Of a stretch of DNA of 64,000 nucleotides, positions 6,724-61,772 are shown piece after piece. The stretch is from a virus (taxonomy: Duplodnaviria; Caudoviricetes), in the IMG/VR virus record IMGVR_UViG_3300025723_000013; one strand, 5' to 3'. The stretch's first letter is position 1, and every line of letters begins with the position of its first letter. A program made the position numbers and the translations under genes. The notes beneath the pieces were generated by a model. That model made no database searches and was not told the origin of the DNA. It worked only from the letters and a program-made list of their open reading frames with translations.

Positions 6724-8136
6724 ATGCCATATACAATTACTTTAACCGACGGAGCGACACTTACAACAATTCCTGACGGACATTATGATAACACTACAAG
6801 TTTGACTCTTCCTGGAAAAAATCTTTCAGGGTATGGGCAAATACAAAATGAAAATTTTATATATTTGCTAGAAAATTTTGCAAATACCTCTGCACCGGCG
6901 GGTCAATTACTAACTGGACAACTTTGGTTTAATAAAACTACCAATTCCTTAAACGTATACAATAACAGCAACTGGCAGCCGTTGTCGGTGATATCGACCA
7001 ATCAATCTGTTGCTTCAAACTTTGGAAATTTTTGGTATGATACTGTAAATAATCAATTGTCAATCAATACAGGATCTGGTTTTACCGTAATTGGGCCGGA
7101 ACAAGTTCCTGGCTACGGAACAACACGATTGATTTCAACACAATTAACCGATATCAATAATAATAATTATGCTGTTATTGAATGTTTGGTTAATAATGTT
7201 GTTGTTGCCATTATTAGTCAACGCGCATTTACACTTAGTAATGCAGTTAATCCTATCGCAGGTTTCGCCAATATCTCAAATGGCATCACCTTATCGGCTA
7301 CTTCCATACTATCAGGATTGAGTTCGTCGGCTACCAATGCGTCTTTACTATTAAGTTCGGATCAAACTCAATACATTCCTGCATCAACTATAGCATATAG
7401 TAATACTATTGTACAAAGAGATACGCAAGGTAATATTTCAATAAATGGATTGGCTACAAACGCTACCAACGGCATTATATATGGATCCTGGCAGGCTGAT
7501 ACCGGAATATCTCCCACTGTAAATGGAGGATCTAATTTAGGATCATCTTCTTTACAATGGGGATCCGTTTACGCTCAAGCCGTTAATTCTACAGTTGTTA
7601 CTGCTGGAACAGTCAATGTAGGTACTGTTAATTTTTCAGCGTTGATTGATCAATTTTCTACTCTTGTGAATAAATTTGATAAAGATAAAACTCTTTCGGC
7701 AAATTCTGATGTAAATGTTCCTACACAAAAAGCAGTAAAAAATTATGTTGACACTCAAATCAGCCAGGTCAGCTTGCAACAAGGACCTACTGGATATACT
7801 GGATCAGTTGGTCAACCCGGAAATACTGGATATACACAAAGTTTATCTCCAAATGGATACACTAAACTTCCTAATGGTATGATTATGCAATGGGGCACCG
7901 CCAATAATTTATCCAATCCTATATTAGGAAATAGCAATTATGGTCCTTTTACTTTTTATACTCCGTTTACTACAGCTTGTGTTCATGTAGGCGTAAGTTT
8001 GCTGTTGAGCAATGGAAAACCTGCACAAATCGCAGCCAGTGCATCTGCTTTTGGTACAAATCAATTTTATGTTGCTACAGGAACAGGCAGTGGAGCAAAT
8101 GCAAATGGGTATACCTACTTTGCAATTGGATACTAA
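6724..8136 (+). CDS. Tail-fibre-like protein, paralog 3
   Basis: Same N-terminal module; short GYTGS collagen-like linker; C-terminal 'GYTKLPNGMIMQWG' motif typical of tail fibre C-terminal domains; SD AAGGA upstream. Confidence 0.72.
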   Translation: MPYTITLTDGATLTTIPDGHYDNTTSLTLPGKNLSGYGQIQNENFIYLLENFANTSAPAGQLLTGQLWFNKTTNSLNVYNNSNWQPLSVISTNQSVASNFGNFWYDTVNNQLSINTGSGFTVIGPEQVPGYGTTRLISTQLTDINNNNYAVIECLVNNVVVAIISQRAFTLSNAVNPIAGFANISNGITLSATSILSGLSSSATNASLLLSSDQTQYIPASTIAYSNTIVQRDTQGNISINGLATNATNGIIYGSWQADTGISPTVNGGSNLGSSSLQWGSVYAQAVNSTVVTAGTVNVGTVNFSALIDQFSTLVNKFDKDKTLSANSDVNVPTQKAVKNYVDTQISQVSLQQGPTGYTGSVGQPGNTGYTQSLSPNGYTKLPNGMIMQWGTANNLSNPILGNSNYGPFTFYTPFTTACVHVGVSLLLSNGKPAQIAASASAFGTNQFYVATGTGSGANANGYTYFAIGY

Positions 8137-8154
8137 AAGGAGTAAATATAGCTA

Positions 8155-9675
8155 ATGCCTTATATATTAAAAAATTCAAACGGAACTACGTTGACTACGG
8201 TTGCTGATGGATCAGTAAACAATAGTACCTCATTGACGTTTGTGGGCAGAAATTATGCAGGATATGGTCAAATTTTAGATCAAAATCTTCTATACCTATT
8301 ACAAAATTTTTCAAATAATACCAGCCCTAATAATCCCATACAAGGTCAGTTATGGTTTAATTCGTCTGCTGCTAATGAAAATCTAAATGTTTACGATGGC
8401 AGCAAATTTAGACAAATTCCAATAATTGATTTGCAACCGGGTACAAATGCCATTGGCAATTTTTATTTCAATACTGCTACCAATACCTTAAATATTATAG
8501 ATCCAGGCGGTTTGTCTCAGACTATTCAATATGCGGCTTCAAGCGGAAATATTGGATCGGCAGTAGTCACAATATCAGATAGCGCAAATACAGTTCATTC
8601 GGTTTTAGCAACACAATTTAATGGATTAATTGTGTCTGTACAATCCGCTAATTCATTTTTAGTTAACACCTCTGATCCTTTATATGCGGCTTTTCCTTAC
8701 GTTACTTCTGGAATTACCTTAGCAAACGCACCCTTGGCTTCTAATTTAGGAATTATGATTCCTTATTCAGGAAATCTCATTTGGGGATCAGCATCAAATT
8801 CAATTACTGCTAATAAATTGCAAGTTACCTCAAACGGCGCGATATCATATCTATCAGCATCAGTAAACACATCAACCAACAGTATTGCAGCCAGAGACAG
8901 TAGTGGTAATTTATATGCTAACACATTCGTTGGAAATTTAATAGGAACAGTAATAAATGGTCAAGGCGGTGTAGCTGCCAATTCCGTACAAAACGGAGTA
9001 AATTCAATGATCTTTAATTGGGTGGGTGGAACTAATGGCAGCCCATCATACATATGGGGATCAAATACCAGCACATCTGCATATGCCTGGCCGGCTGGTA
9101 ATACCACAGTTGGTTTTGCAAATACAGCTTCGTATGCACTTTCAGTCAATCAAAATGCAAGTAACAGTTGGGCTGCTCCGCAGATATTTTACAACTCTGC
9201 AAATTTTATATCAGCAGTAACTTTTCAAAATTCTTCAAATGTTGCATTTACAGGGCAAACAATTTTTAGCAATCAAACACAGTTTGCTCCAAGTAAATTT
9301 ACGCTTATCAACGATGGAGCTGCCACGAATCCCACATACTACGGAATAGGATTTAAAGAAATTCCTCAGAATGTAAAATTAAATAATTATTCAACTGTGT
9401 CAAGCGATTCTGGAAAACATCTTCTTTTCTCCGCAAACATCGCAGCGACATTTACTATAGACGATGCAACAGTGAATTATAATTTTGGCACAGTGATTAC
9501 ATTTGTTAATATGGGTACCGCTAATCTTACCATTGTGTTAAATGGTACCGGATCTGCTCTTTATCTAACCGGTGCAGGCACGCCAGGATCAAGAACTCTT
9601 GCGCCATATGGTGTAGCTACCGCTATGAAAATTGGCACACTTCAATGGATCATGTCTGGATCAGGATTGAGTTAA
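8155..9675 (+). CDS. Tail-fibre-like protein, paralog 4
   Basis: Same N-terminal module; C-terminus 'GSRTLAPYGVAT..W..SGSGLS' resembles the C-terminus of 60732-61772; SD AGGAG at 8138-8142. Confidence 0.72.
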   Translation: MPYILKNSNGTTLTTVADGSVNNSTSLTFVGRNYAGYGQILDQNLLYLLQNFSNNTSPNNPIQGQLWFNSSAANENLNVYDGSKFRQIPIIDLQPGTNAIGNFYFNTATNTLNIIDPGGLSQTIQYAASSGNIGSAVVTISDSANTVHSVLATQFNGLIVSVQSANSFLVNTSDPLYAAFPYVTSGITLANAPLASNLGIMIPYSGNLIWGSASNSITANKLQVTSNGAISYLSASVNTSTNSIAARDSSGNLYANTFVGNLIGTVINGQGGVAANSVQNGVNSMIFNWVGGTNGSPSYIWGSNTSTSAYAWPAGNTTVGFANTASYALSVNQNASNSWAAPQIFYNSANFISAVTFQNSSNVAFTGQTIFSNQTQFAPSKFTLINDGAATNPTYYGIGFKEIPQNVKLNNYSTVSSDSGKHLLFSANIAATFTIDDATVNYNFGTVITFVNMGTANLTIVLNGTGSALYLTGAGTPGSRTLAPYGVATAMKIGTLQWIMSGSGLS

Positions 9676-15157: not shown

Positions 15158-15442
15158 TTATGCGACCTTTTGGCCGGTTACTAATTTATAAACAGAAAAA
15201 TCATTGGTATTGAATAATTTGTTTAATTTTTCTGACAAATTTAATGCGTGACCAACATTGGAAAAGGATACCTTTTTGTATTTAGGTCCTACTTGTTGTG
15301 CAACAATTGAGTTGGTTTTAAGATTAATAGGGCTATCTTTATAAAAAACTGCCCAAATTGCCTCGGCTTCTAACACCTGTTCGGTTTTAAAATTTTTTTT
15401 ATTAGTGATTTCTAATAAAATATTAGGTTTTGGACGTGACAT
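15158..15442 (-). CDS. Hypothetical phage protein
   Basis: 94-aa ORF preceded by a TAAATA motif and a leader hairpin. Confidence 0.7.
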   Translation of the reverse strand: MSRPKPNILLEITNKKNFKTEQVLEAEAIWAVFYKDSPINLKTNSIVAQQVGPKYKKVSFSNVGHALNLSEKLNKLFNTNDFSVYKLVTGQKVA

Positions 15443-15487
15443 AGTGTGTTCCCTATTGAATTACACACTTATTTATTCAAACTTTTT

Positions 15488-17688: not shown

Positions 17689-17940
17689 CTATCGATGAAA
17701 TCGACCTTTGCTATGATCAACCATTTTGTGCACTTCAGGACCCTGACTCACAAAGTCCATGCCGGCAGATCTACCTTCATAAATCCTGCCATTCCACGTC
17801 ATGGGTAATTTAATAGTGTTATTGATAATAACCGTCATCTTATCTTGATGTTTAAAAAAGATAACTTCTGCATCAACAGCTTTTCCGTTCTTTTCCTGAG
17901 TAACTTTACAATTTTTGTCGTGCCGATAAGAATCCATCAT
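17689..17940 (-). CDS. Hypothetical small phage protein
   Basis: ATG at 17940 overlaps the queE stop (ATGA); about 83 aa. Confidence 0.6.
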   Translation of the reverse strand: MMDSYRHDKNCKVTQEKNGKAVDAEVIFFKHQDKMTVIINNTIKLPMTWNGRIYEGRSAGMDFVSQGPEVHKMVDHSKGRFHR

Positions 17941-18809
17941 GTTCCCCAAGCATTTCCAAATAGATCGCATTGCAGTCTTGGACTATAACGCCAGCCTTGA
18001 CTCATGGCATATTCTGCCACTTGACGATTATTCATTTCATATGTTTCCACAGTTCCGCCTACTGGCATCAAGTAGACTGGGCACAAAACATCAGCTTGGC
18101 GATAAGCTTCCACAGCACGATTAACATCGACCAAATCATCAGTATTGGCAACAACAAACTTAAGATACAGATTGCTACCACCATTAATAGATAAATCATA
18201 GTAAGATTTAACAACGTAAGGCTGAATCGCTTCCTCCCAATTCTCACCGCTAACCGTGAGTTTCGGGCTGCAGGACCAGGTGATGTGTAAATTGTTTCTT
18301 TGTTGTAGATAATCGGAAAAATCCTTGTGAAGCTTTTGAGTTGCATTTGTTTCAAATGTGAGATTTTTTAGATCTCGCATGCCTTCGTGTTCTAATAGGT
18401 CAATATAACTGCGTTGCCAGCCCAATAAAGGTTCGCCTCCGGTTATAACCAAGTGTATATCTTGACCGTTTGGTTGTGTCCACTGATTATTTGGTATCAA
18501 TTGTAATAAGCGTTCTACAATGGCGTCCGTATCATTTTTAATTGCAAATTTTTTAAATTCTGAATATACACTTGAATATGAATCACATCCGGTTTTAACT
18601 AGCGGAAGATCATCAAATGTTTTATATTGATCAATATTTTCAATTATTTTCTCAACTTCAGGATTTTTATCTTGGATAACTTTTGAAGAACGACCAAATG
18701 ATTTACATTTAAAATTGCAACCAAAGGTTCTAAAAAAAACACTAGGAATACCGGTCCATACTCCTTCACCTTGCAATGAATAAAATGTCTCTGTATAATG
18801 TATTTTCAT
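17937..18809 (-). CDS. queE: 7-carboxy-7-deazaguanine synthase (radical SAM)
   Basis: ETFYSLQGEG, FFRTFGCNFKC...GCDS (split CxxxC..C), VITGGEP, FETN, SPK, LMPVGG, SPRLQ. Likely start MKIHY at 18809. Confidence 0.92.
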   Translation of the reverse strand: MKIHYTETFYSLQGEGVWTGIPSVFFRTFGCNFKCKSFGRSSKVIQDKNPEVEKIIENIDQYKTFDDLPLVKTGCDSYSSVYSEFKKFAIKNDTDAIVERLLQLIPNNQWTQPNGQDIHLVITGGEPLLGWQRSYIDLLEHEGMRDLKNLTFETNATQKLHKDFSDYLQQRNNLHITWSCSPKLTVSGENWEEAIQPYVVKSYYDLSINGGSNLYLKFVVANTDDLVDVNRAVEAYRQADVLCPVYLMPVGGTVETYEMNNRQVAEYAMSQGWRYSPRLQCDLFGNAWGT

Positions 18810-18813
18810 TTTT

Positions 18814-19587
18814 TTACCTTTTAACTGTTTTAATTCCGTATTCTTCAAAAGTTAGTCCGACAAAATCTGTAAATTCTGGATGAATTAATACAAATATTTT
18901 ACTAATTATAGCATTTCTATTAATTACAATCAACGTATTTTTTGAAAATGTCGGATATAATTTTAACAAATCTATACTTCCTTCGCAGTATCCTTTTGGA
19001 GTTTCATATGCGTATTTTGATGCTGCTAAACTCCTAATTCTTGATCCTTTTTTAACATTTCTTTTTTTCCGAGCAGCAAGTGTTTTTTTTAATTTTGTTT
19101 CGATAGAATCTTTTCTTCCCTTTGCAATTGCTGCATAAAGCACACCGTTATATTTTTCAAATAGTTTTTTAGGTATTCTTGCAACTTCTTCTGTGATTAA
19201 ATGTTTTGCTACTACTGTATTTTTACTATATTGGCTAACTATTTTTGAGTGTTTTTCTCTGATATAGGAGTACACTCTATTAGTAATTTTATAATTTCTT
19301 CCAGAATGAATAGAATAAATCATTTTATGCAATGCCTTTATCATTTTAGGATTATTGGTAGCTTTTGCTAATAAAAGATGTGCGATAAAATGATGTCTAG
19401 CACTTAATTTAATTAAATTAGTTCCTTCTGTTCCTCCAATAGATCGAGGAACAATATGATGCATTTCGGTATATCCGGAAAAATTAATAGTTTTACAGAT
19501 TTCTATGAATTTAATATATCGTTCAATTAAAAGTATTTTAGGATTATGAGAATATTTTAACAAATATATTTTAAGGTCGTTAGACAT
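18814..19587 (-). CDS. Free-standing HNH homing endonuclease-like protein
   Basis: TEMHHIVPRSIGG..NLIKLSARHHFIAHLLL; Lys-rich NUMOD-like tail; SD GGAG at 19600-19597. Confidence 0.85.
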   Translation of the reverse strand: MSNDLKIYLLKYSHNPKILLIERYIKFIEICKTINFSGYTEMHHIVPRSIGGTEGTNLIKLSARHHFIAHLLLAKATNNPKMIKALHKMIYSIHSGRNYKITNRVYSYIREKHSKIVSQYSKNTVVAKHLITEEVARIPKKLFEKYNGVLYAAIAKGRKDSIETKLKKTLAARKKRNVKKGSRIRSLAASKYAYETPKGYCEGSIDLLKLYPTFSKNTLIVINRNAIISKIFVLIHPEFTDFVGLTFEEYGIKTVKR

Positions 19588-19596
19588 TAGATTTTA

Positions 19597-19670
19597 CTCC
19601 AGTAAAGTAGTAGAAGGCTATCTGTGTTACTGGTACAGAAGGATGATCAGTCCTTTCGCCTTCTACCACT
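19597..19670 (-). ncRNA. Putative structured RNA leader (three-way junction plus SD-pairing pseudoknot) of the HNH gene
   Basis: 13-bp P1 (one G.U), two inner hairpins, and loop CCAGUAA complementary to UUACUGG overlapping the SD. See findings. Confidence 0.6.
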
Positions 19671-20088
19671 TATTTATTTTAACATTATCTAAATTTGGAT
19701 CATGATAATTTCCTTTTCCTGGGATAACGTGCCTTACTCCACCTCTAGGATTGTCTACATCGCCAAATTTCCTTGGAATAAGATGCACATGCGGCCACAT
19801 CACAGTTTGTCCTGCAGCCTCGCCATAATTAATTCCTATATTGAATCCATCCCATACTTGATTTGTTACTTGATCTTTTCCATAACGAACAGCATCTTCA
19901 AATGCGTCATTTAGAATGTAGATACTATTATATCTTGGAACAAAAAGCAAATGTCCTTCACTTACCGGAAATTTATCTCGATATATGATCACATGAAAAT
20001 CTTCACGGAAAACATCTTTCCAAGGAACGTTTGCATCCTCAATCACTGCTGGTCCATCAAAAATCCTATCTACATCGATATTTGTCAT
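19663..20088 (-). CDS. HIT family nucleotide hydrolase
   Basis: DKFPVSEGHLLFVPR, GFNIGIN.GEAAGQTV, histidine triad WPHVHLIPR. Likely start at 20088. Confidence 0.92.
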   Translation of the reverse strand: MTNIDVDRIFDGPAVIEDANVPWKDVFREDFHVIIYRDKFPVSEGHLLFVPRYNSIYILNDAFEDAVRYGKDQVTNQVWDGFNIGINYGEAAGQTVMWPHVHLIPRKFGDVDNPRGGVRHVIPGKGNYHDPNLDNVKINKW

Positions 20089-20089
20089 G

Positions 20090-20620
20090 CTATTTCCACC
20101 ATACTTCGTAAGGAAATTCAATCCAAACATTGTCGTTGGATTTGTTGATCTCCATTCCCACAAAATCCATACTTACTTTACATTTGCTATCAAGATTATC
20201 TACTATCACTGCAAATTTAACATTGTTATTCCAAATATTATCCCATCGCTCAACAGAGCATATTCCCGTCTGCCAGTCGTTTATAATCCAATTAAACGTA
20301 GCACCACTATCGTTAATGTCATCCACGATCAGCATGTTTTTTGGAGCATCCATGTCGTAGCCATATGCGTCCTCGGCCATGGCACCATGACTGACACAGA
20401 TTCCTCCGTCGCGCAAACTGACTTCTAGAGGCTGCATAGGGATATCAAAATAATGACTGATCATGGTAGCGGCCATTAGTCCTCCGCGGCTGATTCCTAC
20501 CACGTAGTCAGGACGCCAACTGCTGTTTACAATTTGCCGGCATAGATCCGATACCAAATTTTCATATTGATCGTAAGTTAATCTTAATTTTTTAGTATTA
20601 GCCGACGACATTTTAGCCAT
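20090..20620 (-). CDS. Type I phosphoribosyltransferase (Gpt/xanthine-guanine PRT-like)
   Basis: PDYVVGISRGGL and PRPP-binding loop LIVDDINDSGAT; C-terminal WIEFPYE. Confidence 0.88.
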   Translation of the reverse strand: MAKMSSANTKKLRLTYDQYENLVSDLCRQIVNSSWRPDYVVGISRGGLMAATMISHYFDIPMQPLEVSLRDGGICVSHGAMAEDAYGYDMDAPKNMLIVDDINDSGATFNWIINDWQTGICSVERWDNIWNNNVKFAVIVDNLDSKCKVSMDFVGMEINKSNDNVWIEFPYEVWWK

Positions 20621-60731: not shown

Positions 60732-61772
60732 TTAACTCAACCCTGCTCCGGACGCTATTCCTTCGGAGCCAGAATTAAACCAAATGGTACACAATCCATA
60801 TGCAGCCAGCGTCCGTGTACCAGTGCTGGCAGTACCCGCTAGGCGTAAAGTATTAATGCCCGAAGCAATAGCAATTGATGCAGTGGACACATTGTATATA
60901 CTGACAACATTTCCTTGACTAAACACTGCATTTGGAACAGTAATTGTGCCAGAGGCAACAACGCATTTGCCATTGTCGGTCAACGACAGTGTTGTACTTG
61001 TAGAAGCAGGTACCGAGTTTGATGCAGCGCTACCGATATAACCAAGAGATCCGGAATAACCAGTGGGAGGACCTTGAGATCCAGCATAACCTATGCCTGT
61101 AGATCCTATATATCCATAACTACCTACAAATCCAGTAGTACCTGTAGAACCCACTGAGCCAATGTATCCTGCACTGCCTACAAACCCAGATGCAGTGCTA
61201 GCTGATCCTGTATAGCCGACTGATCCTGTGTAGCCGATACTGCCTGTATAACCTGTTGCTGTGCTAGCTGATCCAGTATAACCAGTTGATCCGGTATAAC
61301 CGCGTGATCCTGTGTAGCCTGTAGCGGTACTAGCTGATCCAGTATAGCCGCCTGCAGGACCAAGAGATCCGGTATATCCAGTACTGCCGCTTCCAGTATA
61401 GCCAGTTGACCCAGCATATCCTATAGAACCAAGATATCCTGATGCTGTACTGGCTGATCCTGTGTATCCTATTGATCCCGCATAGCCAATTGAACCGGCA
61501 AATCCTAAGGATCCTGTGTATCCCGAGGCAGTGCTGGCAGATCCTGTATATCCTGCACTTCCTGCATATCCAACCGATCCAATATACCCCGAGGCAGTGC
61601 TGGCCGATCCTGTATAACCATTTCCATTAAATGTGGATCCTCTTGCTAATATATCGGCTACGGTGGCACGTTTGGTAACAGGAACATTGCCTGTTAAATC
61701 TACAACGGGCATAATGACATTTTGTAGATTAGTGCTTGTAGATAATCCAGGTAAATTTTCAATAGTTGGCAT
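60732..61772 (-). CDS. Collagen-like (Gly-X-Y) tail fibre protein
   Basis: N-terminal attachment-type motif, about 200 aa of GYTGSx repeats, C-terminal domain ending RTLAAYG..SGAGLS. Confidence 0.8.
   Translation of the reverse strand: MPTIENLPGLSTSTNLQNVIMPVVDLTGNVPVTKRATVADILARGSTFNGNGYTGSASTASGYIGSVGYAGSAGYTGSASTASGYTGSLGFAGSIGYAGSIGYTGSASTASGYLGSIGYAGSTGYTGSGSTGYTGSLGPAGGYTGSASTATGYTGSRGYTGSTGYTGSASTATGYTGSIGYTGSVGYTGSASTASGFVGSAGYIGSVGSTGTTGFVGSYGYIGSTGIGYAGSQGPPTGYSGSLGYIGSAASNSVPASTSTTLSLTDNGKCVVASGTITVPNAVFSQGNVVSIYNVSTASIAIASGINTLRLAGTASTGTRTLAAYGLCTIWFNSGSEGIASGAGLS
61029..61619 (-). repeat. Coding tandem repeat GY(T/A/I)GS(x), punctuated by ASTA(S/T)
   Basis: Visible at protein level and as GGATC/TATAC-rich repeats in the DNA. 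Confidence 0.9.

Follow-up and report, generated by a model that had tools for sequence, protein, structure and literature searches.

The sequestration of the ribosome-binding site by a hairpin with an embedded late promoter is an established mode of control of homing-endonuclease genes in T-even phages (PMC2988022). That hairpin forms on read-through RNA only: the late promoter lies inside it, and the late RNA is devoid of the 5' strand (PMC2988022). Dassa et al. described in 2009 conserved hairpins with TATAAATA in the 5' untranslated regions of free-standing endonucleases that belong to the "fractured gene" loci of marine metagenomes, and read them as translational control (PMC2677866). Here, we report on a structured RNA leader found in the IMG/VR virus record IMGVR_UViG_3300025723_000013, a 64,000-nucleotide (nt) stretch of caudoviricete DNA hereafter called the window, where it precedes the gene of a MobE-like HNH homing endonuclease. 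The comparison of 42 such leaders and of related loci shows the fold by covariation, the exclusive association with nucleases, the modularity of the element, and its insertion as a cassette. We propose that this leader is probably a portable cis-acting translational brake on the nuclease.

The leader shares several traits with the T-even elements, namely, a late-promoter motif of the TATAAATA type upstream, a homing-endonuclease open reading frame (ORF) downstream, a Shine-Dalgarno (SD) sequence that is base-paired within a conserved leader, and the same presumed purpose, restraint of the nuclease. The kinship with the T4 type of restraint suggested by an initial annotation, made from the letters of the window alone, is thus upheld, the SD being paired and a nuclease following in 42 of 42 leaders. 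The designs differ, however. The T-even element is a single hairpin, whereas a three-way junction is followed here by an SD hairpin locked by a loop-loop contact. The defining feature of the T-even arrangement, a late transcript that lacks the inhibitory strand, is not found here, as all helices lie downstream of the predicted transcription start (+1). Furthermore, the present leaders are a single family common to at least five families of nucleases, unlike in the T-even scheme.

The leaders of Dassa et al. are alike in that a conserved leader and a late-promoter motif are common to GIY-YIG and Vsr-like endonucleases at different host genes, but by their description they are simple hairpins, made of two complementary motifs with the promoter inside, and neither a junction nor loop-loop pairing was reported. 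Our literature search retrieved the T4 paradigm and the 2009 hairpins and not the present fold, which a catalogue of ~10,000 viral RNA candidates published in 2023 might contain unnamed (PMC10690425). As judged by model searches, the leader is not a member of int-alpA (RF02996, gathering threshold 35.8 bits): the int-alpA model did not hit the window (E up to 10), four other members (E up to 1), or any of five contigs, among them four with the leader. In the SD-sequestering pseudoknot riboswitches preQ1-II and SAM-II, the SD lies within a tertiary helix formed by a hairpin loop. Our leader is similar to these with respect to SD sequestration but differs in that no ligand is indicated and no metabolic genes are associated with it.

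Results

Architecture of the leader in the window

The reference leader is on the − strand of the window and is read 5' to 3' with descending coordinates. Every sequence feature listed by the initial annotation was found on this strand, and the parts of the leader, with paired regions P1 to P4, are as follows.

19678-19671, − strand: late-promoter-like octamer AATAAATA, with TAAATA inside it at 19676-19671; the family consensus is [T/G/C]ATAAATA
~19665-19664, − strand: predicted +1, placed according to T4 spacing
19670-19658, − strand: 5' arm of P1, AGUGGUAGAAGGC; the family core AGGC is at 19661-19658, and the extended P1 is kept in locus L004
19665-19663, − strand: stop codon TAG of the HIT gene, inside the 5' arm of P1
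19657-19654, − strand: junction strand J1/2, GAAA; the family consensus is RAAM, with an invariant central AA (alignments A4 and A5)
19655-19639, − strand: P2 hairpin, AAGGA / loop CUGAUCA / UCCUU; the family core is 3 base pairs (bp), GGA/UCC
19639-19621, − strand: P3 hairpin, UCUGU(A) / (C)ACAGA, with loop L3, CCAGUAA, at 19633-19627
19620-19619, − strand: junction strand J3/1, UA, also kept in the members obtained from the pattern for the 5' half alone
19618-19606, − strand: 3' arm of P1, GCCUUCUACUACU, whose last four bases, UACU, double as the 5' strand of P4
19609-19606 and 19598-19595, − strand: P4 helix, UACU and AGUA, 4 bp, which closes the SD-side strand as a hairpin
19605-19599, − strand: loop L4, UUACUGG, an exact 7-bp complement of L3 that holds the first GG of the SD
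19600-19597, − strand: SD sequence GGAG, divided between the kissing helix (GG) and the 3' strand of P4 (AG)
18814..19587, − strand: gene of the MobE-like HNH homing endonuclease, 257 amino acids, with its ATG at 19587-19585

The initial annotation had placed a structured leader upstream of the HNH gene and behind a late-promoter-like motif, and both the features and the fold of this leader were recovered. In the window, P1 comprises 13 bp, including one G.U pair, and the outer 5-6 nt of its 5' arm precede the predicted late start. Only in the window do P4 and the outer four pairs of P1 compete for UACU, and there they are mutually exclusive. U19639 is shared by the end of P2 and the first pair of P3. 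The P3 strands CUGU/ACAG enclose ACCAGUAAC (19638-19622, − strand), and a sixth pair, U19639-A19621, which is G-C in L254, extends this helix beyond its earlier drawing; at the closing position of P3, the window has an A.C mismatch and L004 an A-U pair, the other leaders having G-C.

For the − strand of the window, ViennaRNA predicts the three-way junction as the fold of minimum free energy (−27.7 kcal/mol, z = −3.9, none of 200 shuffles being as good), and the fold of the + strand is weaker (z = −2.7). The z-score of the window is owed mostly to its 13-bp P1, which is specific to it. No intrinsic terminator was found at the leader. The window contains no second copy of the leader, the other match to the model being a plain late promoter with an SD sequence.

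Covariation among homologous leaders

Members of the family were gathered by two DNA pattern scans, one of viral contigs and one of metagenome contigs, together with a protein-guided search; further members came from a scan that constrained the 5' half only and from a covariance model (R1) based on the initial 19 sequences. The resulting set of 42 distinct leaders from viral and metagenome contigs is the basis of the counts given below, unless stated otherwise. The two main DNA patterns fixed P3 and J3/1 and left J1/2 free, and the pattern for the 5' half fixed P1 and J1/2. Every one of these regions was left unconstrained by at least one of the scans; under that condition, P3 covaried and both RAAM and UA stayed conserved.

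The first two homologues, whose HNH proteins share 64% identity and whose upstream contexts are unrelated, already carry a homologous leader, and in one of them a G-C pair between the loop and the SD region is replaced by A-U. Over the whole set, the standard pairing is satisfied in 99.5% of the alignment cells, against 38 to 51% when the 3' partners are slid by 1 to 3 columns. Compensatory changes occur in 12 of the 19 pairs, distributed over P1 (2/4), P2 (2/3), P3 (4/6), and the loop-SD helix (4/6). Covariation among homologues, named by the initial annotation as a check on its fold, thus supports both the three-way junction and the pairing of the P3 loop with the SD region.

The four pairs of the P1 core are formed in all leaders. 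In the P2 core, 97.6% of the cells are paired, with an A-U/G-C swap at one pair and a G-C/A-U swap at another. The count for P3 includes L254, L255, L256, and L258, which were found without constraining P3. The helix between loops L3 and L4 is paired in 100% of the cells, and each of the six variants of L3 (CCAGUAA, CCAGUA, CCAAUA, CCGAAU, CCGAUU, and CCAACU) comes with a matching L4. In the leader of L004, the extended P1 carries two compensatory changes, and P2 and P3 carry compensatory changes as well. U.G pairs are seen in the sense orientation only, in P1 of 8 sequences and in P3 of 10; the other strand would have A.C at these positions. This asymmetry argues that the sense RNA, which is the − strand RNA of the window, is the folding molecule, in line with the earlier assignment. 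Taken together, these data make the existence of the fold almost certain in our view, and the leader, for which Rfam holds no model, is on this comparative evidence a well-supported new RNA family.

Contigs that contain the leader have a single copy of it. We did not find it in five related large contigs, of which three are at least 90% complete according to CheckV.

Most P2 loops (columns 30-37 of alignment A4) contain a 6-nt palindrome, UGAUCA (window 19644-19650), UAGCUA, or UAAUUA. The palindrome survives the two substitutions that separate UAGCUA from UAAUUA and is broken in the variants UGAUCC and UCGCUA; it could reflect RNA dimerization or a site that operates at the DNA level. Three further candidate elements were considered and rejected as general features of the family. 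A pseudoknot in which the P2 loop would pair with the linker looked promising in the AGUAAUUA/AGUAGCUA subgroup, but family-wide 61% of its cells are paired, which equals the shuffled mean. A segment of the linker that could act as a decoy ("parking" site) for L3 exists in some variants only and is not conserved. Lastly, the resemblance of the 3' strand of P2, GAUC(A/C)UCCUU, to the 3' end of 16S rRNA is not conserved in the GGG/CCC subgroup.

The Shine-Dalgarno hairpin and its kissing contact

In addition to the junction, the segment that carries the SD can itself be closed as a small hairpin, P4. In our own count over 38 distinct leaders, P4 is paired in 99.3% of the cells, compared to 30 to 77% for slid alignments. 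Its second pair is C-G except in L109, which has U-A together with an SD of the sequence GGAA, and its third pair is A-U, U-A, or C-G; in the L160/L189 subgroup, P4 is extended to 6-7 bp. We grade the support that these alignments provide for P4 as moderate.

The loop of P3 thus pairs, with compensatory changes, with a distal segment that is itself a hairpin loop. With P4 present, the loop-SD interaction, previously described as a pseudoknot, is on this alignment evidence an intramolecular kissing complex between the P3 loop and the loop of the SD hairpin. Fully paired loop-loop helices of 6-7 nt are sterically established, as in ColE1 RNA I/RNA II and human immunodeficiency virus TAR-TAR*. 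All of GGAG would then be paired, its first two bases by the kissing helix and its last two by the stem of P4.

Late-promoter-like motif and predicted transcript start

The leaders of the main group have a conserved motif, [T/G/C]ATAAATA, 4-5 nt upstream of the G with which P1 begins. In T4, TATAAATA occupies positions −13 to −6, and the same spacing would place +1 at the first or second G of P1. Within the window, ATAAATA is depleted (10 copies for 28 expected, and at least 10 in each of 100 shuffles), and 9 of the 10 copies are on the coding (−) strand, several of them 15-30 nt before a start codon. This profile fits a functional promoter word that has been purged elsewhere. A plain late gene of the same phage (35140-35100) has the promoter, UUGGAGUAU, and AUG, and does not have the fold of ~55 nt. 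Five leaders (L115, L148, L160, L167, and L189) are devoid of ATAAATA and presumably use another promoter.

In the 40 leaders other than those of the window and L004, P1 has 4 bp and starts at the predicted +1, and both strands of the kissing helix are downstream of this position in all members. A P1 that begins at +1 implies a late transcript that carries the whole fold and has no escape from it; that the promoter fires late and starts at P1 is inferred from the motif and its spacing. For the window, the initial annotation had anticipated that a transcript from the adjacent promoter would have a shortened P1 and a different fold. The shortening stands, with P1 reduced from 13 to ~8 bp in a transcript that starts at ~19665, but the three-way junction is still the predicted fold.

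Another leader preceded by ATAAATA is found at 15436-15476 (− strand) of the window. There, AAGUGUGU and a downstream ACACACU can form a hairpin immediately upstream of an ATG, and an SD-like AGGGA would be part of its loop or its stem.

The leader is part of an inserted nuclease cassette

The ORF downstream of the leader in the window encodes a MobE-like HNH homing endonuclease (phrog_655, E = 1.8e-34), and in all 42 leaders, a nuclease ORF starts 5-9 nt after GGAG. These nucleases are MobE-like HNH proteins, HNH_3 proteins of 175-203 amino acids, two types of GIY-YIG/NUMOD3 proteins, and endonuclease VII-like proteins. The leader occurs in at least seven unrelated gene contexts, the upstream genes encoding HIT, another HNH protein, dCMP deaminase, a Rad50/SbcC-like ATPase, a 5'-3' exonuclease, a glycosyltransferase, or a small protein that precedes DNA polymerase B. 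From P1 to the SD, the leader of an HNH gene (L179) is identical to that of GIY-YIG genes (L118 and L183), the ORFs being unrelated, and HNH_3 and GIY-YIG genes share, behind this leader, one site upstream of DNA polymerase B. Conversely, close homologues of the HNH protein (59-62% identity) are found without the leader in L197 and L199-L205. Identical leaders on unrelated ORFs, the shared polymerase site, and leaderless HNH homologues together identify the leader as a module. More distant MobE-like genes (L222-L227 and L238, upstream of the match at 1201) have [G/T]ATAAATA 5-10 nt before the ATG and no such leader; the late mRNA of these genes would have little or no 5' leader, which would be another solution within one gene family.

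The gene order is HIT, leader, HNH, queE in both the window and L004, whereas HIT is directly followed by queE, without leader or HNH gene, in their relatives L002 and L003. These empty sites indicate that the leader and the HNH gene were inserted as one cassette. The MobE-like HNH homologues (57-65% identity) are always directly upstream of queE. The location of the cassette in a deazaguanine cluster reflects the homing site of the nuclease, which is queE, and not the function of the leader. The riboswitch-like role in a purine/deazaguanine operon envisaged by the initial annotation is not supported by these results, the leader belonging to the cassette and being absent from the HIT-queE sites of L002 and L003. 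The same leader stands beside polymerase B, Rad50/SbcC-like, exonuclease, dCMP deaminase, and glycosyltransferase genes, without association with a pathway. Rfam provided no model match that would indicate a preQ0, preQ1, or purine aptamer in the window or in four other members: nothing overlapped the leader at E up to 10 in the surrounding 2.5 kb, and nothing relevant appeared at E up to 1 in the four members.

At the target gene, the N terminus of queE reads MSKLHYTELFYSIQGEGRY in most loci that bear the cassette (window comparison, 17937-18848). Just upstream of the cassette, three loci have a partial second start of queE, of 19-22 codons (L163:5477-5542, L178:6178-6234, and L180:405-464); these fragments end in ...FYSIQGEGR or ...FYSIQ and run into the stop codons of the promoter. 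This pattern points to a homing site near codon 19 of queE and to co-conversion of the 5' end of this gene.

Other observations at these loci are as follows. L135 has endonucleases in tandem, a 372-amino-acid HNH+NUMOD3 protein (7596-8711) being encoded directly upstream of a leader-bearing MobE-like HNH gene (6733-7515). The HIT ORF of the window, as listed (19663-20163, − strand), has a TTG start that overlaps the phosphoribosyltransferase gene, and its relatives align from about residue 28-31; the true start is probably the ATG of MTNIDVDRIF (~20088), which would give a protein of ~141 amino acids. By their 5'-3' exonuclease, the nearest cultured phages are jumbo phages of the PA5oct and CBB types (49-53% identity). 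A search of the phage record collection retrieved no close relative of the locus and only 71-74% identity over ~100 nt of T-even endonuclease genes. Finally, positions 61040-61625 of the window contain, within a coding region, tandem direct repeats with a 66-nt period (5-6 copies, 62-75% identity), which may belong to a repetitive fibre-like protein.

Discussion

Our current working model is that the cassette unites a T4-type late promoter, an RNA of ~75 nt, and the ORF of a free-standing homing endonuclease. The RNA would fold into a three-way junction (P1/P2/P3) followed by the small SD hairpin P4, and the 6-7 nt loop of P3 would pair with the loop of P4, leaving the ribosome-binding site fully paired. 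We infer that the fold lowers translation, initiation being dependent on rare openings of the kissing complex and of P4. A potentially self-damaging nuclease would in this way be held at a low level on every transcript that carries the leader, whether it arises by read-through or from the late promoter. The unit would be self-contained upstream of the ATG and could be exchanged as a module among unrelated nuclease ORFs. In addition, the pyrimidine-rich unpaired linker might offer a stand-by site for 30S subunits.

Several points weigh against a brake of this kind or against the evidence presented for it. The nested folds of typical family members have z-scores of −0.3 to −0.9, no better than shuffles, and the weight of the evidence is therefore carried by covariation and not by folding energy. 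The CC/GG pairs that cover the SD are invariant and thus beyond the reach of a covariation test, which bears only on the adjoining four pairs, and P4 is short and mostly invariant. Part of the invariance of the sequences was imposed by the search patterns, and the sequences are related, so that shuffle counts are not probabilities. Moreover, a plain hairpin would be enough for a brake; the conserved junction (RAAM, U, and UA) and the elaborate fold hint at something beyond passive occlusion.

This last point leads to the reading that the leader is a sensor, with a junction that binds a small molecule, an ion, or a phage or host protein and thereby locks or opens the kissing complex on the SD. 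The conservation of the junction strands and of helix-proximal bases next to covarying helices is typical of ligand-binding RNAs, a simpler fold would be enough to occlude the ribosome-binding site, and the nuclease families are too different for self-regulation, so that any factor acting in trans must be common to all of them. If this were true, unrelated selfish nucleases would share one portable sensor for late infection, active replication, or co-infection. Nevertheless, we consider a sensor unlikely: the Rfam searches described above were negative, the at least seven unrelated contexts reveal no link with a class of metabolic genes, the L3 decoy and the helix between the P2 loop and the linker are not conserved and hence provide no conserved anti-sequester pairing, and much of the conservation may stem from recent spread and from the search patterns. 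A temporal gate, in which early or middle read-through RNA and late RNA fold differently and only one class is translated, is the established arrangement for I-TevI, I-TevII, I-TevIII, segB, and Aeh1 mobE (PMC2988022). In the window and L004, the outer P1 is upstream of the predicted late start and shares UACU with P4, and the read-through form with a 13-bp P1 should differ around the SD from the late form with an 8-bp P1 and P4. A gate based on this competition between outer P1 and P4 is conceivable in that lineage only. In the other 40 leaders, the 4-bp P1 is at +1, so that both classes of transcripts hold all strands of the fold; the two strands of the kissing helix are downstream of +1 in every member, and, of the two forms of the window, the late one would be the more closed, contrary to the T4 logic. 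A T4-like gate therefore seems to us quite improbable.

The start of P1 at the predicted first transcribed base also suits an effect on RNA fate, by which the 5'-end helix would protect the late transcript from 5'-end-dependent decay or be a processing site, with little effect on translation. Terminal stem-loops at the 5' end are known to stabilize bacterial mRNAs such as ompA. Such a function leaves unexplained why P4 and a covarying helix between two loops coincide precisely with the SD and why the element occurs only with nucleases, an ordinary late gene of the same phage being devoid of it, and we judge it very improbable. We give hardly any credence to catalysis, as by a small self-cleaving ribozyme, or to a role at the DNA level, as a site of recombination or recognition. 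The compactness of the three-way junction, its tertiary loop contact, and the conservation of its junction bases might evoke such an element, but no ribozyme family in Rfam matches and the junction strands (4, 1, and 2 nt) contain no hammerhead core; for a DNA site, the strand-specific U.G pairs and the covariation centered on the SD favor instead a regulatory RNA of the sense strand. The translational brake remains the function that we consider probable for the leader.

Homing endonucleases need to be expressed, but sparingly, and the control of free-standing ones is little understood outside T4; the T4 review counts translational regulation among the areas of ignorance (PMC2988022). In uncultured large freshwater phages, as our results show, one self-contained module of ~90 nt is common to no fewer than five nuclease families that are unrelated to each other; this probable control module is composed of a promoter, a three-way junction, and a kissing-locked SD hairpin, and it is swapped between ORFs and between insertion sites. 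The design departs from the textbook logic of a late promoter inside the hairpin, and the new RNA family can be used to annotate such nuclease cassettes. With a loop-loop sequence that is free to vary on a fixed scaffold, the leader would also be a compact and programmable part, a candidate translational brake for toxic genes. The leader also raises the testable question of whether a common signal acting in trans governs these selfish nucleases.

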